From Eledone cirrhosa (taxonomy: Eukaryota), in NCBI GenBank assembly GCA_964016885.1, contig OZ024750.1, positions 310,001 through 374,000 on the forward strand: a stretch of 64,000 bases of DNA, in the 5' to 3' direction. The position numbers and the translations under genes were made by a program. A model generated the notes under the pieces. The model did no database searches, was not told the origin of the DNA, and saw nothing but the letters and a program-made list of their open reading frames with translations. This document shows, one piece after another, positions 4,648 through 58,871 of this stretch (its first letter is position 1; each line of letters starts with the position of its first letter).

Positions 4648-7441
4648 CATCATCATCGTTTAACGTCCATATTCCACACTTGCATGGGTTTGGACGGGAG
4701 TTTTCCCACTTGGAGCAAGAGTGGTTGTCTTGCTCGCATAGGACTGTCTGGCGGGTTTTCTACGGCTGGATGCCCTTCCTAACACCAACCACGTTTACAG
4801 TGTGGACTGGGAGGCTTTTACCGTGTTACCTACACGGCCACATTACAGCGTGGACTGTGTGTTTTTTTTTTTCGTGACACCTACACAACCTCATTTGTTT
4901 CAGACTGGATGTTGTGGTACCAACATAACTTTACATTGAAAGGGGTGGTGTGGATGGGGTGGGGGTGTATTTTGTTAGAGGTGCCTACTGACTGTAGTGG
5001 GTTTCACTTTGTACTTAGGTAAGGCGGGTCTTCTCTATTACTGTGTAGCGCCAAAGATCTCGGTCCAGTGACATTGTCTTGGAGAGGTGTAAGTGTGTGA
5101 GGTCGGAATTTATCAAGTCGTCCCAGGTTTTTCTGGGTCTGCCTACTCCGTGGCTACCGTCTATTTTTATTGCCCTGCACTTTTTTATACAGCTGTCGTC
5201 TTTCATGCACATCACGTGACCATACCAACGTAGTCTTCTCTCGAGTAAACAACATCTGATCCCACTTATTTCTAACTTTTCCCTTAGTTCGTTTATGCTT
5301 TGCCGTTCACGTATATTACTATTACACATCCAGCGGAGCATGCAAGCTTCGTTCCTCTCCAGTCTGCGTATATCCTCTGCACACAATGCCCAGGTCTCAG
5401 TGCCATGTAACATTGCTGTTCGTATGCAGGCATCATACAGCCTGCCTTTTATTTTTAGAGAGAACCCTTTAGCGGCTAATAGTGGTATAAGCTCTCTGAA
5501 CTTTTTCCATCCAGTTCTGACTCTAGCTACTGTACTTTCAGAGCACCCTCCCCCACTGCTGATTTTGTCACCCAGGTAATGGAAGCTGTCTACTATTTCT
5601 ATAGAACCATCTGTGCAATGGAATGAGCTAGTATTCTGTGAGCACTTGCTGCTACTTATTGCACCAGAGCACCGGCCACATATAAAATCTATGTTCTTAG
5701 TTAGCTTACCTGTGATCCCACTACATCTTTTATGCACCCATACTTTGCATTTGGGACATAAAATGGAGTTTCTACCTACTCCTTTCCTACACACTGAGCA
5801 TTGCCATTACCCGGATGGGACCGGTGCCCTATTTTCCTTCCTACAAACTAGAACTTTAGTCTTAGACAGGTTCATTTTAAGGCCTTTTGATTCTAGGCCA
5901 TGCTTCCATGTTTGGAATTTCTTCTCTAGTTCGGCCATTGATTCAGCTATGAGCGTTAGATCATCTGCGTATAGGAGTTCCCATGGGCAGCCGGTCTTGA
6001 ACTCCTCTGTTATAGCCTGAAGGGCAATAATAAATAGTAGGGGGCTAAGGACGGAGCCCTGATGAACACCAACTTTTACGCTAAACTCTTCACTATATTC
6101 GTTGTTAATTCTAACCTTGCTGACTGTTTCTTTATACATGGCTTGTATAGCTCTCACAAGCCATTCATCAACACCTAGTTTTCTAAGAGCCCTCCAGATA
6201 ATGGAACGGGGGACTTTGTTGAAGGCTTTCTCCAAGTCGACAAAAGCTAAGTATAGGGGTTTACTTTTAGCTAGTAGTTGCCGTACAATGAAAAGAGCAT
6301 CTGTGGTACTTTTACCTGACACAAACTCGAACTGCATTTCGTCTAGATCAATTGCGCTATTACTTTTTCTGTGACCTTCATGACCTGGTCGATTAATTTA
6401 ATGCCTCTATAGTTACTCCTATCTAGGGCATCTCCTTTACCCTTGTAGCAGTTAATGATGATGCTGCTACGCCAGTCCTTCGGAACGACCCCATTCTGTA
6501 TGACTTGGTTTACTATCCGGGTGACCATGGTGTGTCCCACCGTTCCAGAAGCTTTCAGCATTTCAGCAACTATTTCCGAAGGCCCAGCCGCCTTACTCGT
6601 CTTCATATCTTTGATTGCCTTACTTATTATACTACCTTCGACTAACACTGCTGGTCCCTCTATTGGGTCGATGTGGGGGAGACTGTCTTTCTCCCATTTA
6701 TTCTCCTCATTTAGTAGCCTTTCAGTGATGGCAAGTACACCATCATCATTAAGGACACACTTCTCCCCGACAATATCACGGTTTTCCTTGACACATTGCC
6801 TAGCAATCCTGAACACCTTACGTTTTTGGTCCTCGCGTTGTAGAACATGCTTGAACTTTCTTTCCTCTGCTTCTCTTCTTGCGAAGTACACTTGTCTCCT
6901 AGCCTCCATCCTGGCCACTTGATAGTCTTCGCTACTTCCCCCATCCCGCCATACTTTCCAAGCCTGTTTTTTGGCCTTAATTGACTCCTCCACCTTACTG
7001 TTCCACCACAATGTTACTCTCCTCCTGCCTATAGACCTGCTCCAGCCACAGACTTCGTCTGCCGCCATCAGCAGGTTTGCTTTCAGGAATTCCCACTGTT
7101 CCTCTATATTGTACGACTCTAAATGCTCTTCCTTACTGTCGAAAGCATCAAGTAATATACTTTTAAATTTATTTCTGGCTGTGCGGTCCTTTAGCTTCCA
7201 TATTTTTCTCCTGAGGATAGTCCTCTTCTGTTGTCGAGTACGTCTCGTCCTGACTATGAGGTCGCTAATTATCAGTCTATGTTGGGAGGTGCATTCTTCA
7301 TGGGGGAGGGATTTAGTGTTTACAATAGACACTCTGTCACGTCTTCTGGTAAGGATATAATCTACCTGGCTGGTATGTTCCCCTGATCTGTAGGTGATCA
7401 AGTGATTATCTCGTTTTTTTAAGTTAGTGTTACAGATGTGC
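4646..7441 (-). mobile_element. RTE-clade LINE family A, 5'-truncated and inactivated (APE C-part, RT, PHD-like finger, long 3'UTR, (GAT)n tail)
   Basis: ORFs 6343..7443, 5807..6337 and 5015..5794 with QVDYIL, AFVDLEKAF, GVHQGSVLSPLLF, LLYADD, RRLRWYGH, GRPRKTW; frameshift near 6350, stop at 5807; tail ggacgttaaacgatgatg. Confidence 0.95.
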
Positions 7442-7564
7442 ATGTTTTTATTGGCAGCATGACCCTCCCAAAGTATAACAATATCTGTTTCAACACGTTT
7501 TCAAATTAAAAATCTTGCAAAACAAATTCAAAAACGAAGTGTATAATATCTATTTATTATATAC

Positions 7565-7744
7565 AGTATCGGTAGAGGGTCTGACGCCATGCTTTGCAGC
7601 AAAGAGTTACGGCCCTTGCCATTCTGAGTTCAAATCCCACCGAGGTTAACTTTACCTTTCATCCTTACGGGGTCGATAAAAATAAAGTACCAGTAATACA
7701 CTGAGATAATTGCTGGCCTTGTGCCAAAAGTAGAAACAATTATT
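7565..7744 (+). mobile_element. tRNA-derived SINE family S1
   Basis: B-box gagttcaaatccc, body cctttcatccttacggggtcgataaa, tail ggccttgtgccaaaagtagaaacaattatt; about a dozen copies in the window. Confidence 0.9.
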
Positions 7745-10820: not shown

Positions 10821-10866
10821 TTTCTTCTTTCTTTCATTACCAGAGGTTTGCTTGATCAGAGCTGTC

Positions 10867-13170
10867 TTGGGGATTAGAAGAGAGGGACTATGGTAGAAAC
10901 TTGGGGATTAAAAGAGAGGGACTATGGTAGAAACTTGGGGATTAAAAGAGAGGGACTATGGTAGAAACTTGGGGATTAAAAGAGAGGGACTATGGTAGAA
11001 ACTTGGGGATTAAAAGAGAGGGACTATGGTAGAAACTTGGGGATTAGAAGAGAGGGACTATGGTAGAAACTTGGGGATTAAAAGAGAGGGACTATGGTAG
11101 AAACTTGGGGATTAAAAGAGAGGGACTATGGTAGAAACTTGGGGATTAGAAGAGAGGGACTATGGTAGAAACTTGGGGATTAAAAGAGAGGGACTATGGT
11201 AGAAACTTGGGGATTAAAAGAGAGGGACTATGGTAGAAACTTGGGGATTAAAAGAGAGGGACTATGGTAGAAACTTGGGGATTAAAAGAGAGGGACTATG
11301 GTAGAAACTTGGGGATTAGAAGAGAGGGACTATGGTAGAAACTTGGGGATTAAAAGAGAGGGACTATGGTAGAAACTTGGGGATTAAAAGAGAAGGACTA
11401 TGGTAGAAACTTGGGGATTAGAAGAGAGGGACTATGGTAGAAACTTGAGGATTAAAAGAGAGGGACTATGGTAGAAACTTGGGGATTAAAAGAGAGGGAC
11501 TATGGTAGAAACTTGGGGATTAAAAGAGAGGGACTATGGTAGAAACTTGGGGATTAGAAGAGAGAGACTATGGTAGAAACTTGAGGATTAAAAGAGAGGG
11601 ACTATGGTAGAAACTTGGGGATTAAAAGAGAGGGACTATGGTAGAAACTTGGGGATTAAAAGAGAGGGACTATGGTAGAAACTTGGGGATTAAAAGAGAG
11701 GGACTATGGTAGAAACTTGAGGATTAAAAGAGAGGGACTATGGTAGAAACTTGGGGATTAAAAGAGAGGGACTATGGTAGAAACTTGGGGATTAAAAGAG
11801 AGGGACTATGGTAGAAACTTGGGGATTAGAAGAGAGGGACTATGGTAGAAACTTGGGGATTAAAAGAGAGGGACTATGGTAGAAACTTGGGGATTAAAAG
11901 AGAGGGACTATGGTAGAAACTTGGGGATTAGAAGAGAGGGACTATGGTAGAAACTTGGGGATTAAAAGAGAGGGACTATGGTAGAAACTTGGGGATTAAA
12001 AGAGAGGGACTATGGTAGAAACTTGGGGATTAGAAGAGAGGGACTATGGTAGAAACTTGGGGATTAAAAGAGAGGGACTATGGTAGAAACTTGGGGATTA
12101 AAAGAGAGGGACTATGGTAGAAACTTGGGGATTAAAAGAGAGGGACTATGGTAGAAACTTGGGGATTAGAAGAGAGGGACTATGGTAGAAACTTGAGGAT
12201 TAAAAGAGAGGGACTATGGTAGAAACTTGGGGATTAAAAGAGAGGGACTATGGTAGAAACTTGGGGATTAGAAGAGAGGGACTATGGTAGAAACTTGGGG
12301 ATTAAAAGAGAGGGACTATGGTAGAAACTTGGGGATTAAAAGAGAGGGACTATGGTAGAAACTTGGGGATTAGAAGAGAGGGACTATGGTAGAAACTTGA
12401 GGATTAAAAGAGAGGGACTATGGTAGAAACTTGGGGATTAAAAGAGAGGGACTATGGTAGAAACTTGGGGATTAAAAGAGAGGGACTATGGTAGAAACTT
12501 GGGGATTAGAAGAGAGAGACTATGGTAGAAACTTGAGGATTAAAAGAGAGGGACTATGGTAGAAACTTGGGGATTAAAAGAGAGGGACTATGGTAGAAAC
12601 TTGGGGATTAAAAGAGAGGGACTATGGTAGAAACTTGGGGATTAAAAGAGAGGGACTATGGTAGAAACTTGAGGATTAAAAGAGAGGGACTATGGTAGAA
12701 ACTTGGGGATTAAAAGAGAGGGACTATGGTAGAAACTTGGGGATTAGAAGAGAGGGACTATGGTAGAAACTTGGGGATTAGAAGAGAGGGACTATGGTAG
12801 AAACTTGAGGATTAAAAGAGAGGGACTATGGTAGAAACTTGAGGATTAAAAGAGAGGGACTATGGTAGAAACTTGAGGATTAAAAGAGAGGGACTATGGT
12901 AGAAACTTGAGGATTAAAAGAGAGGGACTATGGTAGAAACTTGAGGATTAAAAGAGAGGGACTATGGTAGAAACTTGAGGATTAAAAGAGAGGGACTATG
13001 GTAGAAACTTGGGGATTAGAAGAAAGGGACTATGGTAGAAACTTGGGGATTAAAAGAGAGGGAGTATGGTAGAAACTTGGGGATTAAAAGAGAGGGAGTA
13101 TGGTAGAAACTTGGGGATTAAAAGAGAGGGAGTATGGTAGAAACTTGGGGATTAAAAGAAAGGGACTATG
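10867..13170. repeat. 34-bp minisatellite, ~68 copies (ggggattaaaagagagggactatggtagaaactt)
   Basis: Highly homogeneous 34-nt periodicity over ~2.3 kb. Confidence 0.98.
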
Positions 13171-16378: not shown

Positions 16379-16792
16379 CCCTTTCATGGCTGCATTTCTC
16401 ATGAAATACATTCTATTTTAATTAATGAAATTTTTTTAGAGATTTACTAAAGTTATTCATTGTTTCATTACTAAGATAATTGTTTCTATATTTGGCACAA
16501 GGCCAGCAGATACCCCAGTGCATTACTGGTACTTTGTTTTATTGCCCCCGTAAGGATGAAAGGCAAAGTTAACCTCAGCGGGATTTGAACTCAGACCATA
16601 AACAGTCGTAACTCTATACTGCAAAGCATGGCGTGCGACCCCCTACCAATACTGCCAATCCACCTTACTTAATGTAAGGTTCTTACACAAAATTATGTTG
16701 GAAGATTTTAATCTAAATTGAAAACTTAAAATTCTTGATTAATTAATTGAAATAGAGTGTATTTCATTAGAAATATGGCCATGAAAGGATTA
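16379..16792. mobile_element. piggyBac-like MITE containing an S1 SINE (16477-16663, -)
   Basis: Inverted ends cctttcatggc...tttct.atgaaataca / tgtatttcattagaaatatggccatgaaagg. Confidence 0.65.
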
Positions 16793-16845: not shown

Positions 16846-17184
16846 CACCATCATCATCATTTTACGTCCGCTTTTCCCTGCTTGCAAGGGTGGGACGTGA
16901 ACTGATTCTGGCTTGATTGCTACAGCTGGATGCCCTTCCTAACACCAACCTCATTTACAGTGAGTGCTGGGTGCTTTTTTGTTGTGGCACCTCCACGACC
17001 ACTTTGCAGTGGAATGATAGGAAGCCCTGTCCCTATCATCTCATTTCTACAGCTGAGTAAACTGGAGCAATGTGAAATAAAGTGTCTTGTTCAAGGAAAC
17101 AACACATCACCCGGTCTGAGAATTGAACTCACAACCTTTCGATTGCAAGGCCAATGCTCTAACTACTAAGTCATGTGCCTCCAT
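16846..17184 (-). mobile_element. tRNA-derived SINE family S2 with RTE-B tail
   Basis: tRNA-like head, CORE-like middle, 3' end gtcccacccttgcaagcagggaaaagcggacgtaaaatgatg identical to the RTE tail at ~57196-57240. Confidence 0.9.
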
Positions 17185-20542: not shown

Positions 20543-20865
20543 TCATCATTTCATTTTACGTCCACTTTTCCCTGCTTGCAAGGGTGGGACGGGAACTGAT
20601 TCTGGGTTGATTTCTACAGCTGGATGCCCTTCCTAACACCAACCTCATTTACAGTGAGTGCTGGGTGCTTTTTTTTTTCCGTGGCGCCTCCACGACCACT
20701 TTGCAGTGGAATGATAGGGACCCCAGTCCCTATCATCTCATTTCTACAGCTGAGTGAACTGGAGCAATGTGAAATAAAGTGTCTTGCTCAAGGAAACAAC
20801 ACATCACCCGGTCTGAGAATTGAACTCACAACCTTTCGGTTGCAAGTCCAATGCTCTAACCACTA

Positions 20866-20867
<2 letters not shown>
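20543..20867 (-). mobile_element. SINE family S2 copy, abutting (GT)n at 20868-20954
   Basis: Highly similar to 16846-17184 over its full length. Confidence 0.9.
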
Positions 20868-21326: not shown

Positions 21327-21887
21327 ACACAAAACAAGGATGTACTTGGATGTGTGAAAATTCACACACACCCACATGAGTTAGTGTGTACAAGTGTGTC
21401 TAAATATACACATATTTCTAAAAAGGAAGCCAAATGACTGTAAAAGTAATTTTCTGTGACTCAGACTTCAGTTCTTTAGTCCACAACTTGAGAACATCAA
21501 AGTGAAAGAAGCTGTAACCACTTCAGTCAAATGGAAGTCATTAAAATAAAAATTCATTTACAACAAAATTGCAATTATTACTACTACTACTAATAATAAT
21601 AATGATGATTTCATTTATTGGCCACAAGGGCCGACATATAGGGGACAATACAAAAGACTGGGACAATGGGGTTTTACAGAAAAATCGAGTAAACAATATG
21701 AATAACAATAACAAAGTAACAATAACAAAGTAACAATAACAAAGTAACAATAACAAAGTAACAAGAAAATTACAAGAAAAAATTCCCCAATAGGGGGGAT
21801 GACCACCTAGGGTTCGCTCAGGTACCCCACCAGTCCTGAACGACACGACGTTTCGAGAGCACCCCTCTCCTCTTCAAATTTACCTAC

Positions 21888-24800
21888 CTACAGCCGCATG
21901 ACCAGAGTAGGCCCACTCACACGGGCCATTCTCGCCACATTCACCCACCTTTCAGCAAATGTACTGGGGGGCAGCACTTCTCTCTCCACCCTCACCTTCC
22001 TTTCCAAGTGAAACTTGAAAAAGTTGATAAGGGATTGGCCGAAGAGAAAAGTGTCTGTCTTCAGTCCTTTCAACCTCGTCCACCATACAACCTCTTTCGC
22101 TACTGCCACCAGACAGAGGAAAATTGCCTGCCCTTCCTGGCCAAAAGAAGGCGGCGGGTAGATCTTCACTATGGACTCGGCCGATAGCCGGATCCGTTCT
22201 ACACGCGACAACAGCTGCTCAACATAACTCCACAAGTCAGTAATGCACGGACACTGGACGAGTGCGTGCAGAACGGTTTCGTTGCTCTGTGCACATCTCG
22301 GGCAGGTCCGCCTGACAGCACTACCGTGCCTGTAGAGTTTATCTCGAACCAGCAGTGCCCCCCAGTAGCACTGCCAAGCGAGGGATTTTTGGAAATTATC
22401 CATCATCCCCTGCTCGAAAGTCCTCCGGTACAGACTGGTTAGTTCGACTTCGTTGACTCCCAGAGCCTCTCCGAGTGCGTCGTCGCACTTGCCCACCACT
22501 AATCCCCTATAGAACTCGAGAGTGGAAGTTCCACTGACCACATTGCCCGCCTGCTAGAAGGCAGTGAGTGCCTGGCAACATTCCAGATGCCAGTCACCCA
22601 GTCTCGGTCTCTTCTTGACCCAGGACTGCAACTCAGTCAAAGAAACGAGCTGCGGAAAGGCCCATCTGACAAACGGCGACCACACCTGTTCACCGTTTAG
22701 GCAGAATATCTGGAGATGCCGCAGCCTCAGTGCGTGCCTGCGCTTCATTAGCCACGGCATGCCCAGCCCTCCACGTAGAGAGTGCTGGCAGCAGATGGAC
22801 CGCCTCACCAGCGGAACCTGACCCCTCCACAAGAATTTGAAGAGGAGCCGCTCCAAGATGGCGAAGCGCGAACGGGGGCAAGGGACGATAGTCAGACGGT
22901 AGTAGAGGACGGACGCGATGTACGCGTACGCCACCTCCGCCCGACCTTTCAGTGATAGCTTCATCCCAGCCCATTTCTGGGTGAGACTGACTACCCTGCC
23001 CGTCACCTCGTCCCAATTCTAATCCACCTGGAGATCTGGCCCAAACCAAACTCCTAGCAACTTTGCTGGTCCGTCCGTCCAGTGCCTAACGACGCTGTTG
23101 GACGGCATGGACTTGCCTCTCCAGGTGCCAAGTTGCAAGCCCACTGACTTTTCCGGGTTAAGTTTTGCTCCCGTCAACCTTTCATATTCCCCCAATAAGT
23201 TGCCGACCACCTCGATTTCTGAGGTGTCCGACACCATCACGGTGATATCGTCCGCATAAGCCGACACAGCCTTTCCGCGTCCCGGTTCAAGCGGGATGCC
23301 CTGCAACAGCTCCAGCTTCCGCAGTAAAGGCTCGAGAGTCAATACGTACAGAAGGGAGGAGAGAGGGCACCCTTGACGGAGCGATCGGGAGACCTGAAAC
23401 GGTTCCGAGAGGTGGTCTTTAATTTTGACCATCGAGCAGGTGCCGCTGTGCATTGCAGCGATCCAGCTTCTGAAGACGGGGCCGAAGCCAGCCGCCTTGA
23501 GGACAGCCTTCAGGTACCGATGGTCGACCCTTTCGAATGCTTTCGATTGATCTAAATTGATCAGAGCTCCACTGAAGCCAGGTTTACACCCTACCCTCTC
23601 TATGATGTATCACATTAGGTGGAGGTTGTCGTGTTTGGACCTGGTTGGGATTGCGCAAGTTTGCGCCTCCCCAACCAAATCCCCAACGACAAGCGCCAAC
23701 CTCTTCGCTAACACCCTGGCCAAAATCTTAAACTCTGTGTTGAGCAGAGTTATGGGCCTGAAATTGTCTGTGTCCCTCTTGTTCTCGTCTTTCCTTATCA
23801 GCGTCACTACGCCCCGGCTCACAGAACTGGGAATACTCCCGTTTTGCTGCCAGTTGCAGTAGAGGGCTTCGAGGAGATTGTAGAACAAGCCTGGCATATT
23901 TACGTATAGCTCGTAGGGCAGACCATCCAAACCAGGTGACTTGCGCCTCATGCAGCCGACAAGGGCATCCTGAATCTCGGCTGAAGTAATTGGCCTTTCG
24001 CAGTGCTCAGCATCAGCCGTCGACAGTTGCGGCAAGCCATCGAGGTAGGGACTGAAGTCCGCCACCATCTCTGACCCGCCACTTCCCCCGAAGAACTGAG
24101 CAAAATGTTGGCGAAAGACCTCACACAGCCTCTTGGAATCGCTCAGCTCGTGCCCGTCTCGGTTCGTCAAAGACCGAATTGTGGTTTTATTTCCACGCTG
24201 CGCCTCTGCCACGCGGGCCCATCGAACAGCTTTGGTTCCCTCGTTTCTCAGAGCACACGCCTTAGCTCTGACAATGCAACCTTCGTGTTTCGCATTGAAG
24301 AAATGGTCTAATGCCATTCTCGCCGCTAGCACATCAGTTGCAATGCCACTACAAATAGCCTCGTCTAACTTATCTACCAACTCCCCCTCCTTTCTATTTT
24401 TCTCTAATGCTACTTCTTTGCTAAACTCTATCGACATTACTCTAATCACTCTTTTGAGAGCCCCCCACCATCTATTGTTGACGACTCCCCCTGTCAACTT
24501 TTTCTTAACTAAATTGTTGACCTGGTCCCTGTAAGCCTTACGTGCCGGAAATGACATGTTTAGCTTCCAGTAACCAGGTCCTAACCTACGCGTCTTATCT
24601 AGGTCGACCATACAGATCACAAACTTGTGATCTGAATAGGCGACCGTTTCAAAACGTGGACAGCTTACACTATTTCTGTCTATTTTCCTAATGAATATCC
24701 TGTCTATATACGATCTAGATGACCCTATGCGGTTAACGCAGGTCCACACTGGCGCATTAGGGAAATCTAGTCGGTACCTGTCAGACAGTTGGAACTGGCT

Positions 24801-25307
24801 GATCAGATTCTTGAGGCTTTTGCACCCCCCGCTCCTATCGGATACTCCCACACAGTCCCAGCGTGCGTCTAAGATGCCGTTCCAGTCCCCCGCTAACAGT
24901 AAAGGGTGAGACGTACCCAGAAAGGCTTCCAGGCGTCTAAAGAAGTCCAGCCGTCCTGTCCCAGTAGGAGCATAGACGGCCACCAGTCTAAAGGCACCAC
25001 CTTCATTATTGTTCACGTCCAGGACCACCAACTTCCTGTCCGGGTCCCGGAAGATCGACCTTACCTCGAGATCCAGGCCTTTCCTAAACAGCACTGCCAC
25101 CCCGCCTCCCATTCCCAGCCGGCTAACAGATGCAAAGATCTAATAGTCGTCGAAAATGGGGGCTAGTACGCGTGTGTCGGAAATCCTGGTCTCGCTGACT
25201 GCAATTACATCCATTTCTATAGACCTGAAGTCGTTAAGCAGGTGACCCTGCTTCCAGGACGATCCCAGGCCTCGAACATTTAAACATCCTGCTCTTAATA
25301 CAGCCAT
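21888..25307 (-). pseudogene. Tx1 ORF2 (APE endonuclease + RT + C-terminal CxxC..HxxxxC), 1140 codons with 4 in-frame stops
   Basis: MAVLRAGCLNVRGL..VSETR, LAGDWN, SYIDRIF, YSDHK, PGYWKLN, KSPGLDGLPYELY, FRPITLLN, RQGCPLS, AYADD, CPRC..ETVLHALVQC; stops at 25140, 23610, 23019 and 22554, all in one frame. Confidence 0.92.
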
Positions 25308-25338
25308 GTTGGCAGGTTAAACAGAGAGCTAGGAAGGT

Positions 25339-27339
25339 TTACTTACCTTCCGGGCTCTTGTGAAGGTCGGGTTGTTCGACCTCCATAGTTAGTGGGATTT
25401 CTTTTGGGAACCCCTTTAAAAGTCTTGAAGTGGGTTTTACGTTCGGGGTTCCCACATCCCGAGGAAAGCTGTCTCGTATTTCTTTGAATATGTCGAGCGA
25501 CATTCGCACCAGAACCAAATCTTCCGGCATGCGAAATGTGCTCGATTTAAAAATTTCCCCCTCTTTTTGTATATTTTCACTTCGTGCTACGAGGGCCATC
25601 AGTTCCTTATTGGCCCTCCTGACGAGCACGAAGTTTTGTATGTTTTGTTGGTGTGATTTTATTTGTTTGCGTGGCTGTGGTGGTGATGGTTTTGGTGGTG
25701 TTGTTTCGGTTGTATCTGTGTTTGTTGTGTGTGCGGTGTCTGTGGTTTCAGATGTTTGTGTGTATATGTGTTCTTGTGTCTGTTTCGGTTGTTTGCGTTT
25801 GGAGGATTCTGATGATGGTGGTGTTGATGTTGGTGTTATTGGAGAGATGTTTGCGTGGGTGGTGTCTGCGTTTTTTATTGTGGGTGCTTTTGTGCTTTGT
25901 TGAGTTTTTTTTTTCTTTTTGTTTCCTTTTTTGTATTTTGGGGGGTTTGGGATTTCCCTCATTTTCACTACTGGTAGATGAGGGGGTCTGTGTCTGTAAG
26001 TGTGTCTGTATGTATGTTTATGGTTTTATTGGTGTGTGTATTTTGGGGGGGAGGGGGAATTTGACAGCTTTCCTCGTTTCCCCCCTGGGTGGTCAATGTT
26101 GGTGGTGGTCTTTCTATTGGTGTTGTTGTTGGTGGTTTTGCCGGTGCTGGTGTTGGTTGTGGTCCTCGCCCCGGCGTCGGCAGCGGTGGAGCCTTTTGAC
26201 CCCTTGCCTCTTTCAGCAGTTGAGGGCAGAAGGCTCGCAAATGAGTTTTTTCCCCACAAACAAAACACTGCGGCCTTTTGCCTTCAGTCATAATGTGAAT
26301 GACCGTCCCATTCTGAAGGCGGATGTGGTCCGGGATTGTCTTCACATTCTCGGGCCTGATCTGGAGAAGGATCTCCAGGTCAACCCCGGACCAGTCCTCT
26401 CTGGCCGTTCTGGTCACTTCTATAGGGACTGTATCCGTCCCCTCCACAATCACACATCCCAGAAGCCACCACATGTCAAGTCCTGGTGGGATTCTGGGAA
26501 TGTGGAGACGGGCCGTTCTTTTTCCCATGTGGGAGGGGTACATTATGACCTTGTTGGTTTTGCAAGGAGTCATAGCGTGTTTCATAGCGAGGGCTTCTGA
26601 TTTGAACAACACCGAAATGGTGCCATACTGTCATGTACTGGGTGTCTCTCTATGTACTGGGTGTCTTCTCTGATGCACCTCAGCGCGACTTCGACATCTT
26701 CTTGTGGGATTAAGTCTGCCCTTTTCGTTTGTGCTGAGATGCATCTATAATGCACCGTTCTGCGCTCCACTGCCTCAATAGCTTCTACCGGGACAGTTAA
26801 GTTGGCCCAGGTTTGCTCTTGCTTGATGAGCTTCCATGCCTGGGCCAACTTTTCATCTTTGTTTGAGAGGTCTATGTTGAAGCATGGCCTCTTTTTTGCT
26901 GCTGCCGCAGCGAAAGTGTTCTTCATGTTTTCGTTGGGGGTTTTGTTGTCGTTGTTCTTGTTTGTGTTGTTGTTAGCACTGTCGCTGTTATCATTGTTGT
27001 CTTTGTTGCCATCGTTGTTCTCGGTGCAGTTGGTATTGTTGGTGTTGTCGCTATTTGTTTTCATGTTAGTGGTGTTGATATTGTTGTTGTACTTGTTATT
27101 TTTTTTTTGTTATCTGTATTTTCGTTGTCGCTGTTACTGTCATTTTTTTCAAAATTAGTGTTCTTATTGGTATCATTGGTGTCTTTGTTTACCTTGTTTG
27201 TGGTGGTGTTTGTGTTATCAATGTGTGTTAATTTCGCTGTAGCGCTCCTCTCAACTTCTACGTCGTTGTCGCACGACAGCCGACATATCGCTGGGGGGGG
27301 CTCAGCCATGTTTTTTTTTCTTCGTAAATTTTTTAACAT
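25339..27339 (-). pseudogene. Tx1 ORF1 (gag-like), about 3 frameshifts
   Basis: Chained ORFs 27061..27339, 26582..27064, 25968..26612 and 25339..25968; zinc knuckle CFVCGEKTHLRAFC; N/T- and P-rich low-complexity segments. Confidence 0.8.
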
Positions 27340-27530
27340 GTAAAAAAAAGTTCAAATATTTGGGCCAAAAGGCCCAAATATTATACTTTCCCCTTCCCGG
27401 GCATAGTCTAAGGGCTTATATCCTTTACACAACAAGAAATATTTAACAACAAATAATTTTAAGAGGCAAATAAAGCGACTTACTGTGAGCGAGCAAAATA
27501 CGTCCACTTAGACCAATAATAATAATAATA

Positions 27531-27772
27531 ATAGGCGCACTAGGTACTATCCCAAAAAGTTGCCAGGGATGGTTAAAGAAAATTGGCCCCGCCACGCTTT
27601 TTGGAACGCTTCAAAAGGCATGCTTGCTGGGAACAGCAAGAACCCTCCGATACGTCCTGAATATCTGAAGCTGCAGGTAGTGGCTTGATATTCATTTCAA
27701 CAAACTTTCCAGTTAACTAACATCAATGACTGAGACTCAAAGAACAATAATAATAATAATAATAATAATAAT
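27531..27772 (+). mobile_element. R4/Dong-like (RLE-encoding) LINE, 3' fragment with (AAT)n tail
   Basis: 27531-27668 reads IGALGTIPKSCQGWLKKIGPATLFGTLQKACLLGTARTLRYVLNI*, the typical R4/Dong C-terminus; (AAT)n on both sides. Confidence 0.85.
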
Positions 27773-33777: not shown

Positions 33778-36700
33778 ACCATTGAAAACATCAGACCATT
33801 GACAACAACAGACCATTGATAACAGCAGACTATTAACAACATGAGACCATTGGCAACATCAGACCATTAGCAAAATCAGACCATTGACAACATCAGACCA
33901 TTGACAACATCAGACCATTGACAACATCAGACCATTGACAATATCAAACCATTGGCAACATCAAACCATTGGCAACATCAGACCATTGACAACATCAGAC
34001 CATTGACAATATCAAACCATTGGCAACATCAAACCATTGGCAACATCAGACCATTGACAACAACAGACCATTGACAACATCAGACCATTGGCAACATCAG
34101 ACCATTAGCAACATCAGACCATTGACAATATCAGATCATTGACATCATCAGACCATTAACAACATCAGACCATTAGCAACATCCGACCATTGATAACAGC
34201 AGATTATTAACAACATCAGACCATTAGCAACATCAGACCATTAGCAACATCAGACCATTGATAACATCAGACTATTAACAACATCAGACCATTGACAACA
34301 TCAGACCATTAGCAACATCAGACCATTAGCAACATCAGACCATTAGCAACATCAGACCATTAGCAACATCAGACCATTAGCAACATCAGACCATTAGCAA
34401 CATCAGACCATTAGCAACATCAGACCATTGGCAACATCAGACCATTGGCAACATCAGACCATTGGCAATATCAAACCATTGGCAACATCAGACCATTGAC
34501 AACATCAGACCATTGGCATCATCAGACCATTGACAACATCAGACCATTGACAACATCAGACCATTAGCAACATCAGACCATTGGCATCATCAGACCATTG
34601 ACAACATCAGACCATTGACAACCTCAGACCACTGACAACATCAGACCATTAGCAACATCAGACCATTAGCAACATCAGACCATTAGCAACATCAGACCAT
34701 TAGCAACATCAGACCATTAGCAACATCAAACCATTGGCATCATCAAACCATTGACAACATCAGACCATTAGCAACATCAGACCATTAGCAACATCAGACC
34801 ATTAGCAACATCAGACCATTAGCAACATCAGACCATTGACAACATCAGACCATTAGCAACATCAGATCATTGGCAACATCAGACCATTGGCAACATCTGA
34901 CCATTGGCAACATCTGACCATTGGCAACATCTGACCATTGGCAACATTTAGACCATTGACAACATCAGACCATTAGCAACATCAGACCATTAGCAACATC
35001 AGACCATTGGCAACATCAGACCATTGACAATATCAAACCATTGGCAACATCAGACCATTGACAACATCAGACTATTAACAACATCAGACTATTAACAACA
35101 TCAGACCATTAGCAACATCAGACCATTGATAACAGCAGATTATTAACAACATCAGACCATTGATAACATCAGACTATTAACATCAGACCATTAGCAACAT
35201 CAGACTATTAACAACATCAGACCATTGACAACATCAGACTATTAACAACATCAGACCATTAACAACATCAGATCATTGGCAACATCAGACCATTGGCAAC
35301 ATCAGACCATTGGCAACATCAGAATATTGACAACATCAGACTATTAACAACATCAGACCATTGACAACATCAGACCATTGACAACATCAGACCATTAGCA
35401 ACATCAGACCATTGGCAACATCAGACCATTAGCAACATCAGATCATTGACAACATCAGATCATTGACATCATCAGATCATTGACATCATCAGACTATTAA
35501 CAACATCAGACCATTAGCAACATCAGACCATTAGCAACATCAGACCATTGGCAACATCAGACTATTAACAACATCAGACCATTAGCAACATCAGACCATT
35601 AGCAACATCAGACCATTGACAACATCAGACCATTGACAACATCAGACCATTGACAACATCAGACCATTGACAACATCAGACCATTGACAACATCAGACCA
35701 TTAGCATCATCAGACCATTGACAACATCAGACCATTGACAACATCAGACCATTGGCATCATCAGACCATTGACAACATCAGACCATTAGCAACATCAGAC
35801 CATTGGCATCATCAGACCATTGACAACATCAAACCATTAGCAACATCAGACCATTAACAACCTCAGACCACTGACAACGTCAGACCATTAGCAACATCAG
35901 ACCATTGGCATCATCAGACCATTGACAACATCAGACCATTGGCATCATCAGACCATTGACAACATCAGACCATTAGCAACATCAGACCATTGACAACGTC
36001 AGACCATTAGCAACATCAGACCATTGGCATCATCAGACGATTGACAACATCAGACCATTGGCATCATCAGACCATTGACAACATCAGACCATTGACAACA
36101 TCAGACCATTAGCAACATCAGACCATTGACAACATCAGACCATTAGCAACATCAGACCATTAGCAACATCAGACCATTGACAACATCAGACCATTAGCAA
36201 CATCAGACCATTGGCAACATCAGACCATTGGCAACATCAGACCATTGGCAACATCAGACCATTGGCAACATTTAGACCATTGGCAACATCAGACCATTGG
36301 CAACATCAGACCATTAGCAACATCAGACCATTAGCAACATCAGACCATTGGCAACATCAGACCATTGACAATATCAAACCATTGGCAACATCAGACCATT
36401 GACAACATCAGACTATTAACAACATCAGACCATTAGCAACATCAGACCATTAGCAACATCAGACCATTAGCAACATCAGACCATTGATAACAGCAGATTA
36501 TTAACAACATCAGACCATTGGCAACATCAGACTATTAACATCAGACCATTAGCAACATCAGACTACTAACAACATCAGACCATTGACAACATCAGACCAT
36601 TGACAACATCAGACCATTAGCAACATCAGACCATTAGCAACATCAGACCATTGGCAGCATCAGACCATTAGCAACATCAGACCATTAGCAACATCAGACC

Positions 36701-38481
36701 ATTAGCAACATCAGACCATTGGCAACATCAGACTATTGACAACATCAGACTATTGACAACATCAGACTATTAACAACATCAGACCATTAGCAACATCAGA
36801 CCATTAGCAACATCAGACCATTAGCAACATCAGACCATTGACAACATCAGACTATTGACAACATCAGCCTATTAACAACATCAGACCATTAGCAACATCA
36901 GACCATTAGCAACATCAGACCATTGACAACATCAGACTATTGACAACATCAGCCTATTAACAACATCAGACCATTAGCAACATCAGACCATTAGCAACAT
37001 CAGACCATTGACAACATCAGATCATTGACAACATCAGATCATTGACAACATCAGACCATTGACAATATCAGACCATTAGCAACATCAGACCATTAGCAAC
37101 ATCAGACCATTAGCAACATCAGACCATTGACAACATCAGACCATTGACAACATCAGACCATTAACAACAACAGACCATTGACAACATCAGACCATTGGCA
37201 ACATCAGACCACTGACAACATCAGACCATTAGCAACATCAGACCATTGACAACATCAGACCATTGGCATCATCAGACCATTGACAACATCAGACCATTGA
37301 CAACCTCAGACCACTGACAACATCAGACCATTAGCAACATCAGACCATTAGCAACATCAGACCATTAGCAACATCAGACCATTAGCAACATCAGACCATT
37401 AGCAACATCAGACCATTGGCATCATCAGACCATTGACAACATCAGACCATTAGCAACATCAGACCATTGGCAACATTTAGACCATTGACAACATCAGACC
37501 ATTAGCAACATCAGACCATTAGCAACATCAGACCATTGGCATCATCAGACCATTGACAACATCAGACCATTAGCAACATCAAACCATTGGCAACATTTAG
37601 ACCATTGACAACATCAGACCATTAGCAACATCAGACCATTGGCAACATCAGACCATTAGCAACATCAGACTATTGACAACATCAGACCATTGACAACATC
37701 AGACCATTAGCAACATCAGACCATTGACAACATCAGACCATTGACAACATCAGACCATTGACAACATCAGACCATTGACAACCTCAGACCACTGACAACA
37801 TCAGACCATTAGCAACATCAGACCATTAGCAACATCAGACCATTGGCAACATCAGACCATTAGCAACATCAGACTATTGACAACATCAGACCATTTGACA
37901 ACATCAGACCATTAGCAACATCAGACCATTGACAACATCAGACCATTGACAACATCAGACCATTGACAACATCAGACCATTGACAACCTCAGACCACTGA
38001 CAACATCAGACCATTAGCAACATCAGACCATTAGCAACATCAGACCATTAGCAACATCAGACCATTGGCATCATCAGACCATTGACAACATCAGACCATT
38101 AGCAACATCAGACCATTGACAACATCAGACCATTAGCAACACCAGACCATTGACAACATCAGACCATTAGCAACATCAGACCATTGGCAACATCAGACCA
38201 TTAGCAACATCAGACCATTGGCAACATCAGACTATTGGCAACATCAGACCATTGGCAACATCAGACCATTGGCAACATTTAGACCATTGACAACATCAGA
38301 CCATTAGCAACATCAGACCATTAGCAACATCAGACCATTAGCAACATCAGACCATTGGCAACATCAGACCATTGACAACATCAGACCATTAGCAACATCA
38401 GACTATTGACAACATCAGACCATTGACAACATCAGACCATTAGCAACATCAGACCATTGACAACATCAGACCATTGACAAC
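33778..38481. repeat. 17-bp satellite array, ~4.7 kb, ~275 copies (cagaccatt[gac/agc/ggc]aacat)
   Basis: 17-nt periodicity checked along the array; rare 14- and 18-nt variants. Confidence 0.98.
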
Positions 38482-40160: not shown

Positions 40161-40480
40161 TAATAATTGTTTCTAGTTTTGGCACAAGGCCAGCAATTAT
40201 CTCAGTTTATTACTGGTACTTTATTTTATCGACCCCGTAAGGATAAAAGGCAAAGTTGACCCGGCGGGATTTGAACTCAGAATGGCAAGGGCCGTAACTC
40301 TATGCTAGAAAGCATGGTGTCTGACTCTACCGATACTGCCAATCCACCACTCTTATAGTGTTAATAATTGTTTCTACTTTTGGCACAAGGCCAGCAATTA
40401 TCCAGTGCATTACTAGTACTTTATTTTATCGACCCTGTAAGGATGAAAGGCAAAGTTAACCTTGGCGGGATTTGAACTCA
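40161..40480 (-). mobile_element. Tandem pair of S1 SINEs
   Basis: Full copy 40161-40351 and 5'-truncated copy 40362-40480; tatagtgttaataatt duplicated. Confidence 0.88.
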
Positions 40481-41599
40481 AAAGATAAATGAATCTCGGT
40501 TTTGTTAACTCTTAATATCCTGTACCACATGAAACCACATTAGCAAGACATTCTTCAAAAGCATAAAACAGCACTAGGACTGCATCACATTAAAAATTAA
40601 TCTCTCTACTCTAATACTGCAAATTGTTACAACTGTCTGTTCACCAGTAAAGATACTATAAACATTTGAATTAACAAAGCTAACCCATGCTAGCGTGAAA
40701 GATGGACATTAAACGAAGATGATGATGATGTTTGTAGACATTTTCTGCTAAATCATTGCAGGAGATTGAGAGTTAATGAGTCTTTTAGTTGCTTCATTAA
40801 CAGAGTGGTCTACTCATTAAATTAAAGTGTAAGTGGTTGAGTATTCCACACACACATAATTCACAGGAAAGTTCAATGTGGCACAATACACAGCAGGGCT
40901 GACTCTTTTTATTTACAGGTACAGTCCATCTGAGTGACAACCAAACAGTTTCTGTGTACACAATTTCAATCACAAGGTTTGAGTCGACCTGAGGCTATGG
41001 TAGAAGACACTCAAAATTCCTCAGTGGGATTGAAACCAAAACTTCATGATTGTGAAGCAAACATCTTAACCATTCAGCCATGCTACATCTAAGGTATTAA
41101 ACAAATGGAAAGTTTCGGTAGCAGAAAATTAACGCCATTTAAATTTGACACTTATCTAAATTTGTTTTTAAAGAACTGTCAACAATAGTACATAGCATAC
41201 ATCTGTCCCAAATTTTAGTAAACCCCCACCACCACCACAAGCCTACTGTTTTCATGATAAATACTATCAGTCTTCCTTCACTTCAAGATAAAATATTTTT
41301 TTTAAATATTACTGATTGTTGTATGTGATGATGATGATAGTAGTTTTTTGCTTTGTCACATTTGAGTCATTCCCACCTAATGGATGACATACATAACGAT
41401 GGAAGGGGGGGGGGGGTACTTTTTACTATTGACACAAGATTTCTTAAAGAGGGTGGGGGAATCTTTTAATATTGACAAGATTTTTTATTTTCAGTAACCC
41501 TGTGAAAGTTTAGTTGTGGTGTCTGGTTATAGGATTAGTTAGTTGTAATGGGTCACTATTAGTATATTGAGTTGAGTAGTAGGTTCCTGTTAATGTGAT

Positions 41600-41780: not shown

Positions 41781-41861
41781 GGCTCTGGATTTAGCAATGG
41801 ACAATTATAGAGTTTGGGAGAGATTTCTTCTTTTTATTATTATTATCATTATTACATTGCA

Positions 41862-42146
41862 GTTACGGCCCTTGCCTTTCTGAGTTCAAATCCCGCCGAG
41901 GTTAACATTGCCTTTCATCCTTACGGGGTCGATAAAATAAAGTACCAGTAATCTACTGGGTAATTTGCTGGCCTTGTGCCAAAAGTAGAAACAATTATTA
42001 CATTGCAGTGGATTGGCAGTATCGGTATACCATCGGACACTTTATTCTGCAGTATAGAGTTACGGCCCTTTACGTTCCGGGTTCAAATCCTGCCGAGGTT
42101 AGCTTTGTCTTTCATCCTTACGTGGTTGGTAAAATAAAGTACCAGT
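41862..42146 (+). mobile_element. Tandem pair of S1 SINEs
   Basis: attattacattgcagt precedes each copy. Confidence 0.85.
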
Positions 42147-49193: not shown

Positions 49194-50930
49194 TAGTTAG
49201 TAAAATCACCTAAAAAAAATTAAGTATTTTAACTAGCAACCAGATGATAGAATTTGTTACATAGGTGACCTAATCAACAGTGGAGGTGGTTATGAGAAAT
49301 ATATAGCAGCCAGGGTAAAAATGGAGGGTAGAGTTTCAAATAACTATTACCTCTGTTGGCAACAAAGAGTTTTCTCTCTAACTAAAGGACAAATAATATA
49401 ATGTTTGTGTAAGACCTGTGACATTGTATGGTAGTGAGATGGGACACTGAATGCAGAAGATGTGCAAAGACTGGGAAGAAATCAAGGAAGCATGCTCTGC
49501 TAGATGTGCAATGTCAGCTATGAATGAATTATGGAGCACAGGTGAGCTGACAGAAAAACTAAGCAAGGGATATGTTATCTATGTGAAGGAAGACAGTTGG
49601 GTGAACATTTTCAAACGATTCATGAGGAAGAAGTCTGTGGAAGAGATATTCTGAAGACAACATAGGAAGAAAATAGTCAGATCTGATATGCGGATGCTGG
49701 ACTTCACAGATGATGAGGGCCATATGGTGAGATGTTGTGTTGAAACAGGCAGTACAACCAATGCCAGGATGGGAAAACAAACATTAAAAAGTGGTGGTGG
49801 TGGTAATGGTGATTGGGCTGCTGCTTGTAGTACTTATGGTAATAATGGTAGTGGTGATGATGATGGTGATAGCAGTGGTGGTAATAGTGGTGACAGTGGT
49901 GATGACAATGGTGGTGATAGTGATGATGGTGATCTTGATAAACATCAGGTCTTCATGGGTAATTATTTCCTTAAGTAGATAAGTGGTGACTTAGTCTATA
50001 TATTCTATAGCAAAAAGAATCATGGTATTAGAATTAAACCTTCCTTACCAAAGACAATGAAGTGACTATGACAGCAGATGGAATGATAGTTCAATAGACA
50101 ATAATTTGTCCATTCAATTGGCCATCTTACACTTGGTAATTCCTATTATGGAGTGTCAGATATAAACATAACAAAAGTTAACTAAAAGTTGCTATTCTCT
50201 ATAATCAATACAATTTACTGTACTAAATCACTGTTAATTTCAACCTATTTGTCTAGATTGGTCTCATTTGCGTATCATAGACAATAGCACCAATGCTCAT
50301 CTATATGATGCTGTATGTCAGGAAGTGACGTTGGTGGGTTCCAAATCCTAGTCCGGAAGCTGTCTATGGAGCCACAGTTGATCTGCTTTCATTACAAGGT
50401 TGAAACCATTGGTTACTTGTCACCTGACTAGAGAGTCCCATCTACCTCAGTTTTGAAATGAGAGTGATCCTTCTCCAGACTGTTTACCTGTATTGGATGG
50501 CCATTGACTCTCCTCACATCCTCCACTGTTTTTATCCTACTGGGTATCCACCCTCCTCACAAAGCAAGTTTGGTGAGGTTGCCAGTTTAGTAACAGACAA
50601 CCCATGTGTCAGGTTGAACTGGGTTACATGTTACCAATAGCACATGAAAGCGATCTGACTTCATATATGAGTGTGGGCTGAAAAGTTCAAAGGCTGACTA
50701 TGAAGTGATGCTAGTGCTGTGAAATCTTGCATGCATTAATTTCAACTCTTCTTATTAATAACTGCATTGACTCTCCTGAGACTGTTCTCTTGTATTAAGC
50801 TATAATTCTCTCTGCCTCTCATTACCACTCTGTTGGGAGTATCTGAGACAGGTCACCTTACCTCCCACCACCAATATTGCTTCAGATAGTTTTCCTATGC
50901 CCCACTCTGGTCTAGGAAGCCATGTAAAGA

Positions 50931-51308
50931 ATAATTGTTTCTACTTTTGGCACAAAGCCAGCAATTATCCCAGTATATTACTGGTACTTTATTTTATCGA
51001 CCTCGTAAGGATGAAAGGCAAAGCTAACCTCGGTGGGATTTGAACTCATACCATAAAGGGCCGTAACTCTTTGCTGCAAAGCATGGCGCTCGATCCTGCC
51101 AATCCACAGCCATGTAAAGAATAATTGTATCTACTTTTGGTACAAGGCCAGCAATTACTCAGTGCATAACTGGTACTTTATTTTATCGACCTCGTAAGGA
51201 TGAAAGGCAAAGTTAACCTCGGCGGGAGTTGAACTCAGAATGGCAAGGGCCGTAACTATGCGTCAAAGCATGGTGTCCGACCCTCTACCGATACTGCCAA
51301 TCCACCAC
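50931..51308 (-). mobile_element. Tandem pair of S1 SINEs
   Basis: agccatgtaaagaataattgt duplicated at 50918 and 51108. Confidence 0.88.
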
Positions 51309-52602: not shown

Positions 52603-52797
52603 GAATAATTATTTCTACTTTAGACACAAGGCGGGCAATTTAAAGAGTCCCTAATACCTATTGGTACTTTATTTTATCGACCCCATAAGGATGAAAGGCA
52701 AAGCTAACTACGGCAGAATTTAAACTCAGACCGTAAAAGGCCATAACTCTATGCTGCAAAGCATGGTGTCCAACACTCTACCAATACTGCCAATCCA
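52603..52797 (-). mobile_element. S1 SINE
   Basis: Same head, body and tail as the other S1 copies. Confidence 0.85.
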
Positions 52798-54024
52798 CTG
52801 TTCTAGATTGGTAAAATAATACAAACATGGAACAATTGCTGACTAAATAGCAAGAGGTCCACCAATGAAGCAGAGGCCATAACTAACGTTTCTTCTATCT
52901 TAGATGGTGTTTATAATGTCTAATATAGTATTACCATGAAAATCTTACCAGTTCATGTTTAATATTGTCACACACATATCTATATTGTAGGACAAAACAA
53001 AATGAATACCTAGTACCCGTGTTAGAGTAGAATATACATTTACTAATATTTCAAATTAGTATTACTAATATATCAAATTTGCCAGCCTCGTTACTCAACT
53101 TTCACTTGAGTTAATGAAGCTAGGAAATTTTACTTCTTAAAACATTCAAACACACACATACACACATATAATGATTGCAACTCCTGGTTCCTATACTTCA
53201 ATCTGATAGAAATCAACCTGATCTAAAAAAGGAACCATTGCGTGTAATCCAATTGGAATTATAAAGAAACCCAGTCTAATGAATAAAATATAAGAAAAGA
53301 AATTGTAAAAATAAATTTTTATCCATGTAAAATTAATTGAGACAGTTCTTGAGTCTTGGAGCAACTTTAACCGAGTTTCCTTTTATATAATTCCGATTTT
53401 GAGGGAGATTAACACAAATTACTCTCTCTTCCTTACCACTACACTAATCCCTTCTTAAGACAAGGTTCATTGACTTCAAAATGCATTCAACAACGAAATT
53501 GCCCTCTTTTTTTTTTTTTTTTTGAACGGAGAGAACTGAACTATCGATTATGTGTGGGTGTATATGAAAGGGGGGGGGGGCAGAGGAGTGGAGAAAGAGT
53601 GATTGATAGACGGAAGGAGAGAAGAAGAGAGAACGAAAGAAGAGATGACTGCTAAAAATAGCGAGAAATATGACTTTAGAAACTGTAGCCAGCATAGCAC
53701 CAAATTTCGGCGCAGCTCAAATCTGTCGGATAAATTAAGAATTTTTTTTCTGAGAATGAATATGGGATGCAAATGATAACAATGAGAAGGGGAGGGTGTA
53801 AACGGTAAAAGTTTAGAAACAGACAATGTATGTAACCTTGCCAAAAATATTATATAAACAATATAACCATGAACAAGAACTACACGTAAAAGCTTGAGTA
53901 GTTTCCATTGAGAAAAAAAATAGTTGGATTATATGAGTATGGTGGTATTATAACAAATTTAATATAAACTAGTATGGATCCAATAAGATCTATTCAAATT
54001 TTGCTCACTTTGAGTGTATTAAAC

Positions 54025-54386
54025 CACGATTCTTTCTAGCATTGACACCAGGGCAACAATTTGTTTGAGGGGAGGGGGGTTAAATATATCGCCCTCAATA
54101 TTTAACTGGTACTTTATTTTATCGACCCTGGTAGTATGAAAAACAAAGCTAACCTCGGCGGGATTTGAACTCAGAACGTAAAAGGCCATAACTAAATACC
54201 GCAAATCATTTTGTCCAATACTCTACCAATACTGCTAATCCACAATATAATAAAATATTGTTTCTACTTTTGGCACAAGGCCAGCAATTACTCAGTACAT
54301 TACTGGTACTTTATTTTATTGACCCCGTAAGGATGAAAGGCAAAGTTAACCTCGGCGGGTTCAAATCCCGCCGAGGTTAACTTTGA
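54025..54386 (-). mobile_element. Two adjacent S1 SINEs, the right-hand one ending in a fold-back inversion
   Basis: S1 motifs; caaagttaacctcggcggg-ttcaaat-cccgccgaggttaactttg at 54341-54385. Confidence 0.82.
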
Positions 54387-57253: not shown

Positions 57254-57355
57254 TATCTATATTCACAAATATCTATATTCACATATATATATATTCACAT
57301 ATATATATAGATACACATATATCTATATTCACATATATCTACATATCTATATATT

Positions 57356-57427
<72 letters not shown>

Positions 57428-58185
57428 CATATATATATATATATATATATATTCACATATATATATATATTCACATATATATATATATATATATTCACAT
57501 ATATATATATATATATATTCACATATATATATATATATATATATTCACATATATATATATATATATATTCACATATATATATATATATATATTCACATAT
57601 ATATATATATATATTCACATATATATATATATATATATTCACATATATATATATATATATATTCACATATATATATATATATATATATTCACATATATAT
57701 ATATATATATTCACATATATATATATATATATTCACATATATATATATATATATATATTCACATATATATATATATATATATTCACATATATATATATAT
57801 ATATATTCACATATATATATATATATATATTCACATATATATATATATATATATTCACATATATATATATATATATTCACATATATATATATATATATAT
57901 TCACATATATATATATATATATATTCACATATATATATATATATATATTCACATATATATATATATATTCACATATATATATATATATATATTCACATAT
58001 ATATATATATATATATTCACATATATATATATATATATATTCACATATATATATATATATATTCACATATATATATATATATATATTCACATATATATAT
58101 ATATATATATATTCACATATATATATATATATATATTCACATATATATATATATATATATTCACATATATATATATATATATATT

Positions 58186-58221
<36 letters not shown>

Positions 58222-58271
58222 CATATATATATATATATATTCACATATATATATATATATATGTATATATT

Positions 58272-58339
<68 letters not shown>

Positions 58340-58501
58340 CATATATATATATATATATATATATTCACATATATATATATATATATATATATTCACATAT
58401 ATATATATATATATATATATTCACATATATATATATATATATATATTCACATATATATATATATATATATATATTCACATATATATATATATATATATAT
58501 T

Positions 58502-58543
<42 letters not shown>

Positions 58544-58617
58544 CATATATATATATATATATATTCACATATATATATATATATATATATTCACATATAT
58601 ATATATATATATATATT

Positions 58618-58657
<40 letters not shown>

Positions 58658-58837: not shown

Positions 58838-58871
<34 letters not shown>

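Follow-up and report, generated by a model that had tools for sequence, protein, structure and literature searches.

The commonest short repeat sampled in Eledone cirrhosa shares a predicted 3' hairpin and a junction with an ATT-targeting Tx1-type LINE, a likely old SINE/LINE pair

Introduction

Which long interspersed element (LINE) copies the commonest short interspersed element (SINE) of an octopod is a question raised by a 64,000-nucleotide (nt) stretch of Eledone cirrhosa DNA (GenBank assembly GCA_964016885.1, contig OZ024750.1, positions 310,001 to 374,000; referred to here, at its full length, as the window). The window carries copies of a SINE, S1, together with a full-length LINE of the L1/Tx1 group, and a first-pass annotation had proposed, from a short and gapped match between their 3' ends, that S1 is mobilized by this Tx1 family or by a relative. 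Our analysis suggests that S1 likely belongs to an old SINE/LINE pair driven by an ATT-targeting Tx1 lineage: because the same predicted hairpin and junction end both elements, S1 was likely copied by the Tx1 enzyme. The proposal holds insofar as the 3' module and junction of S1 fit ATT-lineage Tx1 and none of the other tails examined, but no single Tx1 family can be named, as at least five subfamilies carry the tail and no LINE was recovered that combines the S1 stem with an intact poly(A) hexamer.

In Octopus vulgaris, 11.6% of the genome consists of SINEs, mostly unclassified, according to the available part of PMC13282606 (papers are cited by PubMed Central (PMC) accession, most of them from partial texts). 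Octopus retrotransposition work has so far centred on RTE and Dong-R4. A Tx1 driver, if true, would identify what powered a large SINE expansion. The features on which the argument draws are as follows, in window coordinates.

21607..27514, minus strand: full-length 5.9-kb L1/Tx1-group LINE, subfamily A, with a 5' end common to 16 of 20 fetched copies
21888..25139, minus strand: open reading frame 2 (ORF2) pieces with APE endonuclease, reverse transcriptase (RT) and zf-RVT (Pfam PF03372, PF00078, PF13966)
25968..27109, minus strand: ORF1 pieces with a CCHC zinc-knuckle pattern in the translation
21620..21632, minus strand: Tx1 tail hairpin with a 4-base-pair (bp) stem and a five-base loop at 21624-21628
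21607..21619, minus strand: poly(A)-signal hexamer, purine tetramer and two variable bases, reaching the 3' junction
21581..21606, minus strand: ATT-type run 3' of the LINE, degrading to related triplets
27515..27532, minus strand: (ATT)6 immediately 5' of the LINE
7564..7744, plus strand: short-form S1 copy, with its hairpin at 7714-7726 (loop at 7718-7722) and its junction starting at 7739
41861..41993, plus strand: S1 copy, 5'-truncated (hairpin 41969-41981)
41848..41863, plus strand: left copy of the 16-bp target-site duplication of the S1 at 41861..41993
41994..42009, plus strand: right copy of the same duplication, beginning at the junction
40162..40489, minus strand: S1 pair, head-to-tail, of which 40162-40350 is the reference copy
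50922..51308, minus strand: S1 pair, head-to-tail
16476..16664, minus strand: S1 copy
52604..52798, minus strand: S1 copy, diverged
54094..54359, minus strand: short-form S1, then a diverged long-form S1

S1 and the Tx1-type LINE end in one ungapped module

The ends that had been compared were located at 21590-21640 on the minus strand for the LINE and at 7711-7744 and 41967-41999 for S1. Both elements terminate in a single ungapped module of ~30 nt that consists, in order, of stem, five-base loop, stem, a six- or seven-base spacer, a purine tetramer, two variable bases and the junction, whose opening five bases are the start of an ATT run. The loop of the predicted hairpin is identical in S1 and Tx1 and, read from the loop, S1 is collinear with the subfamilies Tx1-B, B2 and D, so that the gap in the original alignment is not needed. 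Relative to these subfamilies the second stem pair is exchanged, from C-G in Tx1 to G-C in S1, and the poly(A) hexamer is lost in S1; in Tx1-C the outer stem pairs are altered on both sides. Compensatory stem differences separate Tx1 subfamilies from one another and Tx1 from S1. The long, older form of S1 matches Tx1 best, and the last six bases of old S1 copies are identical to those of Tx1-A, B and B2; with Tx1-A, A2 and C the long form also agrees better than the short form, which retains the loop and the pairing. The hairpin is present in the minimum-energy and centroid folds of all five tails folded. Across 11 distinct tails, three of the four stem pairs change on both sides, giving a covariation of 0.359 that 1 of 500 shuffles reached (slid controls gave at most 0.118), which is supportive rather than independent evidence because the alignment rows were chosen on the loop.

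We scored five S1 tails against 15 single-copy tail queries anchored at the 3' end, nine of them from non-Tx1 LINEs (CR1, Ingi-like, RTE and Dong/R4). Tx1 queries scored 9-35 and the nine others 0-12, a background level. Out of 400 dinucleotide shuffles, 0-5 reached the score of Tx1-A, B, B2 and D, 0-16 that of A2, 0-67 that of C (not significant against short-form S1) and 20-400 those of the nine non-Tx1 queries. The ranking held against a genomic null of 1500 45-mers that, like S1, stop at the junction pentamer: Tx1-A, B, B2 and D were reached by 6-14 of these sequences and the non-Tx1 tails by 53-1500. The eight top-scoring null sequences listed were leftover S1 copies. The shared 3' end is a stronger match than had been claimed; it beats chance when anchored at the 3' end, and within a partial LINE survey none of the other LINE tails scored fits S1 better.

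The same genome provides a positive control in an RTE-tailed SINE with a tRNA-like head (20549-20867 and 16851-17170, both minus strand). The final ~40 nt of this SINE agree at 94% with the end of the RTE LINE and lead into ATG-type repeats. Plain blastn aligns this SINE with RTE at 94% over 52 nt (E 3e-19) and misses the match between S1 and Tx1, which argues that the S1-Tx1 link is old and short.

Two Tx1-type lineages keep the tail and differ in target

The window LINE has the architecture of the L1 group, with two ORFs, the second of which encodes APE endonuclease (PF03372, E 1e-10), RT (PF00078, E 2e-18) and a C-terminal zinc-binding domain (PF13966, E 8e-9) and is interrupted by three in-frame stops; ORF1 matches zf-CCHC_4 at E 0.21 only, under the cut-off. 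The closest solved relative of ORF2 is human L1 ORF2p (E 4e-19), and the closest named homologue of a near relative is a hypothetical protein of Argonauta hians, which fits the cephalopod setting. No named Tx1 reference was found among the homologues, so the label Tx1 rests on L1-group architecture and target preference rather than on a tree.

A genomic search with the LINE 3' end returned 2631 candidates, the 30 best of which all stop at one base and continue into ATT units, though the query contained flank. With a query that stops at the junction, at least three ATT units follow 25 of 29 Tx1-A copies, and they follow 8 of 9 random Tx1 copies; the exact tail plus three ATT units occurs 2054 times in the genome. 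The 5' end is intact in 16 of 20 copies fetched whole, and an ATT run precedes every one of the 16, to be compared with the >20% of flanks of one type that defines target preference in Tx1 families in the available text of PMC4494074. Twelve of the 16 directly follow the tail of a further element, that of another Tx1 in 8 cases and that of an S1 in 4.

Loci found through zf-RVT comprise several Tx1 subfamilies whose C-terminal ORF2 is ~50-95% identical to that of the window copy and whose 3' untranslated region is altered upstream, with the last ~30 nt kept; the tail is common to at least five subfamilies of this ATT lineage. Open ORF2 frames longer than 1100 aa exist. Divergence is 1.8% in Tx1-A and 3.3-3.4% in B and C, in sets biased to best hits. 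A sister lineage (L140, L259-L288), again of several subfamilies, ends in the same tail module and then runs into TATC repeats as its target.

S1 is abundant and inserts at a five-base motif

Densities were taken from 1.0 Mb of random sequence (100 random 10-kb stretches). S1 is the commonest short repeat sampled, with 122-127 tails (~125 per Mb), or ~380,000 copies in the genome if the sample is representative; the same sequence holds 10 ATT-lineage Tx1, 9 TATC-lineage, 24 RTE-type, 7 Dong and 6 CR1 tails. At ~185 nt, S1 is short, dispersed, high-copy and non-coding, as expected of a SINE, and 64 of 115 copies are full-length, and 5' truncation occurs. Short-form copies (88) differ from the column majority by a median of 4.9% (minimum 0) and the older long-form copies (19) by 10.6%. 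The head has A- and B-box-like motifs, judged by eye only; no tRNA call was obtained for S1, as ARAGORN found 0 genes in the window and Rfam gave no tRNA match, and neither these two nor the protein atlas supplied names. The body may resemble the Nin/Deu domain; OR1/OR2/OK and Twitch are other names given to high-copy tRNA-type SINEs of octopods. Looking for S1 variants that carry a long Tx1-like tail yielded three hits, and their matched text resembles mutated long-form S1. Among the matches listed, contigs from three other organisms cover both tails and those of a fourth cover S1 alone, which shows shared presence and not partnership.

A target duplication of at least 10 bp opens at the junction in 42 of 115 scorable S1 copies, as against 4.15 for shuffled pairs, and 39 of these duplications are 10-18 bp long. 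The base before the junction is T or C at 86% of sites, and no thymine stretch stands out near position -10. Among 116 random copies S1 keeps only the first five junction bases (91-97% per position), after which the repeat is lost. Of seven LINE tail sets, only the ATT lineage matches these five bases; the RTE junction is one base off and Dong is in the opposite phase. The S1 junction therefore fits the ATT-targeting Tx1 lineage and not the TATC-targeting one. Dong/R4 was rejected as a partner on its background tail score, its opposite phase and the orientation of S1 beside Dong tails (0 same and 2 opposite of 18), and CR1, the Ingi-like LINE and four RTE families fail on both tail score and junction.

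Both elements had been described as running into ATT repeats and as an (ATT)n-targeting pair. That description applies to the LINE, given its ATT runs at both ends, but S1 is not an (ATT)n-microsatellite element: at least three ATT units follow 14 of 116 S1 copies, significantly fewer than for Tx1-A or random Tx1 (Fisher p 3e-14). S1 insertions instead sit at a five-base motif and lie for the most part in unique AT-rich DNA, so the target logos of the two elements share a core and differ in stringency. The insertion signatures agree in part: five-base core, orientation and duplication length are alike in S1 and in two informative Tx1-A copies, and repeat stringency is unlike. The duplications of these two copies, L203 and L029 (16 bp with two mismatches, by eye), open at the same position as in S1; no complex duplication opening at the junction was found among 32 RTE-type tails.

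S1 also occurs beside ATT repeats in one orientation. Within 60 nt behind free ATT runs it was found in the same orientation in 8 of 128 cases and in the opposite one in none, compared with 0.6% behind random positions. Behind Tx1 tails a positional sample gave 8 of 20, or 7 of 19 with a duplicated pair counted once, an excess over free ATT runs (p 0.0007); behind TATC-lineage tails S1 was seen in 0 of 33. Mixed head-to-tail arrays (L168 and L171) run, for example, Tx1 tail, S1, Tx1, S1, with an ATT run at each joint. Template-switch chimeras are not supported as the sole cause of such arrays, given that most S1 copies behind Tx1 tails carry long 3'-side ATT runs. One locus (L304), in which a 24-nt Tx1 tail is fused to a truncated S1 with a 14-bp repeat on both sides, is a possible template-switch chimera, although the case is ambiguous, as two insertions would account for it if one substitution is allowed.

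Discussion

Most likely, the S1 tail derives from an older element of the Tx1 group and would since have diverged by exchange of one stem pair and by loss of the poly(A) hexamer, which a Pol III transcript would not require. ORF2 protein of the ATT lineage is predicted to bind the shared hairpin loop in trans, a step we infer from zebrafish L2, in which the loop is recognized and stems can be swapped provided that pairing is kept (PMC4176376, available part). The endonuclease would nick beside the junction motif, where the short 3' end of S1 may prime, so that one or two ATT units would be enough for S1; the LINE, unlike S1, would mostly land in longer ATT runs. Endonuclease preference and pairing of the template 3' end probably both contribute to target choice, and since every insertion would supply a fresh target, arrays could build.

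We are evenly divided on a broader proposition, that an animal Tx1 lineage with stringent, loop-specific 3' recognition powered the dominant octopod SINE expansion, the tail staying fixed while the endonuclease target split into ATT and TATC and the SINE followed the ATT branch only. If true, template recognition and DNA targeting would therefore be separable within one genome, and the natural stem variants together with the two target lineages would be ready controls for telling RNA recognition from target choice.

Several observations weigh against a Tx1-driven S1. On the side of the tail, plain blastn does not connect S1 with Tx1 at E<=5, and for a single S1 copy the unanchored score of RTE-b exceeded all 400 shuffles. 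When LINEs combining the S1 stem with an intact hexamer were sought, the 13 hits were all S1 copies. Folding z-scores are near zero in three of five tails, the loop is partly changed in TATC-lineage Tx1, and the covariation alignment was selected on the loop, with the structure read from the same sequences. On the side of the target, there is the lower repeat content behind S1; in a larger set biased to best hits S1 follows 12 of 97 Tx1 tails, no different from free ATT runs (p 0.15); and a clean unique duplication was found in only 1 of 102 ATT-lineage tails scanned (L203, 15 bp). As proof of a common endonuclease the shared junction is not independent, because the 3' repeat of the template itself can determine where a duplication starts (PMC6007223, available part). 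Finally, membership of the LINE in the Tx1 clade is putative, being read from architecture and target preference, and the LINE survey was partial, covering the 1.0 Mb of random sequence and targeted searches, with 128 of 196 unassigned ORFs scanned with Pfam.

This last point leaves some room for an alternative that we consider unlikely, in which S1 is partnered by a LINE that is extinct or low in copy number, belongs to a different clade (L2, Nimb/I, or a further CR1 or R4 family) and has a tail nearer to S1, the Tx1 end being merely similar. No LINE with the exact tail was recovered, the CRE-like and Penelope elements seen in the sample have unscored ends, and L2 and CR1 are the usual partners in molluscs in the available parts of PMC4824008 and PMC4758252. 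Loop, spacing and junction nonetheless all agree with Tx1, the nine non-Tx1 queries stay at background when anchored, and the maker of several hundred thousand S1 copies would be expected to have left copies of its own.

Less probable again is a change of driver, in which the tail came once from Tx1 and recent short-form S1 was copied by another active LINE, such as RTE, S1 priming at its five-base motif via its own 3' end. The poorer fit of the short form to Tx1-A, A2 and C and the weaker attachment of S1 to repeats would be accounted for in this way; RTE tails also outnumber those of ATT-lineage Tx1 in the sample, and RTE target choice can follow the template 3' repeat, as the available text of PMC6007223 reports. 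Yet the short form retains loop and pairing, RTE already has a SINE with a near-perfect tail, and two features of the insertion sites, the lack of junction-opening complex duplications at RTE-type tails and of a prominent thymine stretch near -10 of S1 sites, argue against it. Chance or convergence, on the view that small GC hairpins commonly precede an A-rich spacer at the ends of retroposons and that AT-rich DNA accounts for the co-location, gains something from the brevity of the match, its invisibility to blastn, the weak z-scores and the result for Tx1-C, but is very improbable given scores above the 99th percentile of the matched genomic null, an identical loop and spacing, and a strict orientation bias beside ATT runs.

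The reading of S1 and ATT-lineage Tx1 as a pair joins elements of several known systems. Shared-tail SINE/LINE pairs are already known, and it is a Tx1-group partner with a shared tail that is new in the literature searched: none of the 58 pairs in Table 1 of PMC3747384 has a Tx1 partner. UnaSINE/UnaL2 and ZfL2, from L2-, CR1- and RTE-clade pairs, likewise have a shared 3' hairpin with a conserved loop, an exchangeable stem and a short end repeat (PMC3747384 and PMC4176376, available parts); the S1 pair differs in having an L1/Tx1-group LINE as its partner, in the shortness and divergence of the stretch shared, and in that its recognition is a prediction. The nearest structural precedent is the monocot L1 lineage, in which ZmSINE2/3 and LINE1-1_ZM share a conserved hairpin tail with compensatory changes (Ohshima 2012, PMC3472496, available part), although that is a plant L1 lineage ending in T runs and ours an animal lineage that targets microsatellites. 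Crocodilian SINEU, with Tx1-Mar, is like S1 a SINE assigned to Tx1-clade machinery, in its case by shared target preference only (Kojima 2015, PMC4494074). In the available text SINEU combines small nuclear RNA heads with a poly(A) tail, and a LINE sharing the SINEU-1 3' end was not found; S1 is linked to its LINE by a common hairpin tail, and in place of a Mariner element its target is a short ATT motif. Kibi and Koshi, fish Tx1 families described in the same source, resemble our two lineages, by description and not by tree, in being APE-type sister lineages that prefer different microsatellites, TC and TTC there as opposed to ATT and TATC here.

In octopuses, the available parts of PMC8967140 and PMC13282606 describe high-copy tRNA-type SINEs, 'tRNA-Deu' and 'tRNA-Core', in genomes with L1-Tx1, RTE, CR1 and Dong-R4; they name no partner LINE. 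No report of a cephalopod Tx1-tailed SINE was found in the literature searched, which is exclusive of Repbase, Dfam, SINEBase, supplements and subscription papers such as Ohshima and Okada 1994, and none is named in the available parts of PMC13282606, PMC8967140, PMC4758252, PMC4824008, PMC5804259, PMC5786205 and PMC10294476.

Other features of the window and the sample

The other LINE end adjoining the window Tx1 is an R4 fragment, which continues into AAT as the first-pass annotation had read it.

27533..27745, plus strand: R4/Dong 3' fragment, in the opposite orientation to the Tx1 LINE, followed by (AAT)9

R4/Dong uses the trinucleotide repeat of Tx1 but on the opposite strand (27515-27772), and elsewhere Dong ends often adjoin Tx1 tails tail-to-tail (e.g. 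L009, L187 and L188). An abundant CR1-like family (3' end at 62620-62742, minus strand, and L214-L238; 11,312 candidates, with many long open frames) runs into TA repeats, and a low-copy Ingi/I-like LINE (L087, L239-L258) with an RNase H-like region runs into AAC-type repeats. RTE-type ORFs of the window (5015-5806, minus strand, and 56160-57230, plus strand) carry a cysteine-rich, zinc-finger-like insert right after the RT core, and an RTE-like family of the sample has several C-terminal C2H2-type fingers (L051:3-1154 and L064:4703-8056). The random sample also holds the CRE-like family (L042, 7393-9300) and the Penelope elements mentioned above, second R4-like LINEs, and fragments of Helitron and long terminal repeat elements (the loci besides L042 being L044:3000-5400, L049, L081, L038 and L067). 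Large tandem arrays occupy 10866-13170, 33778-38481 and 57283-62624 of the window (34 bp x 68, 17 bp x 277 and a 5.3-kb TA-rich repeat).
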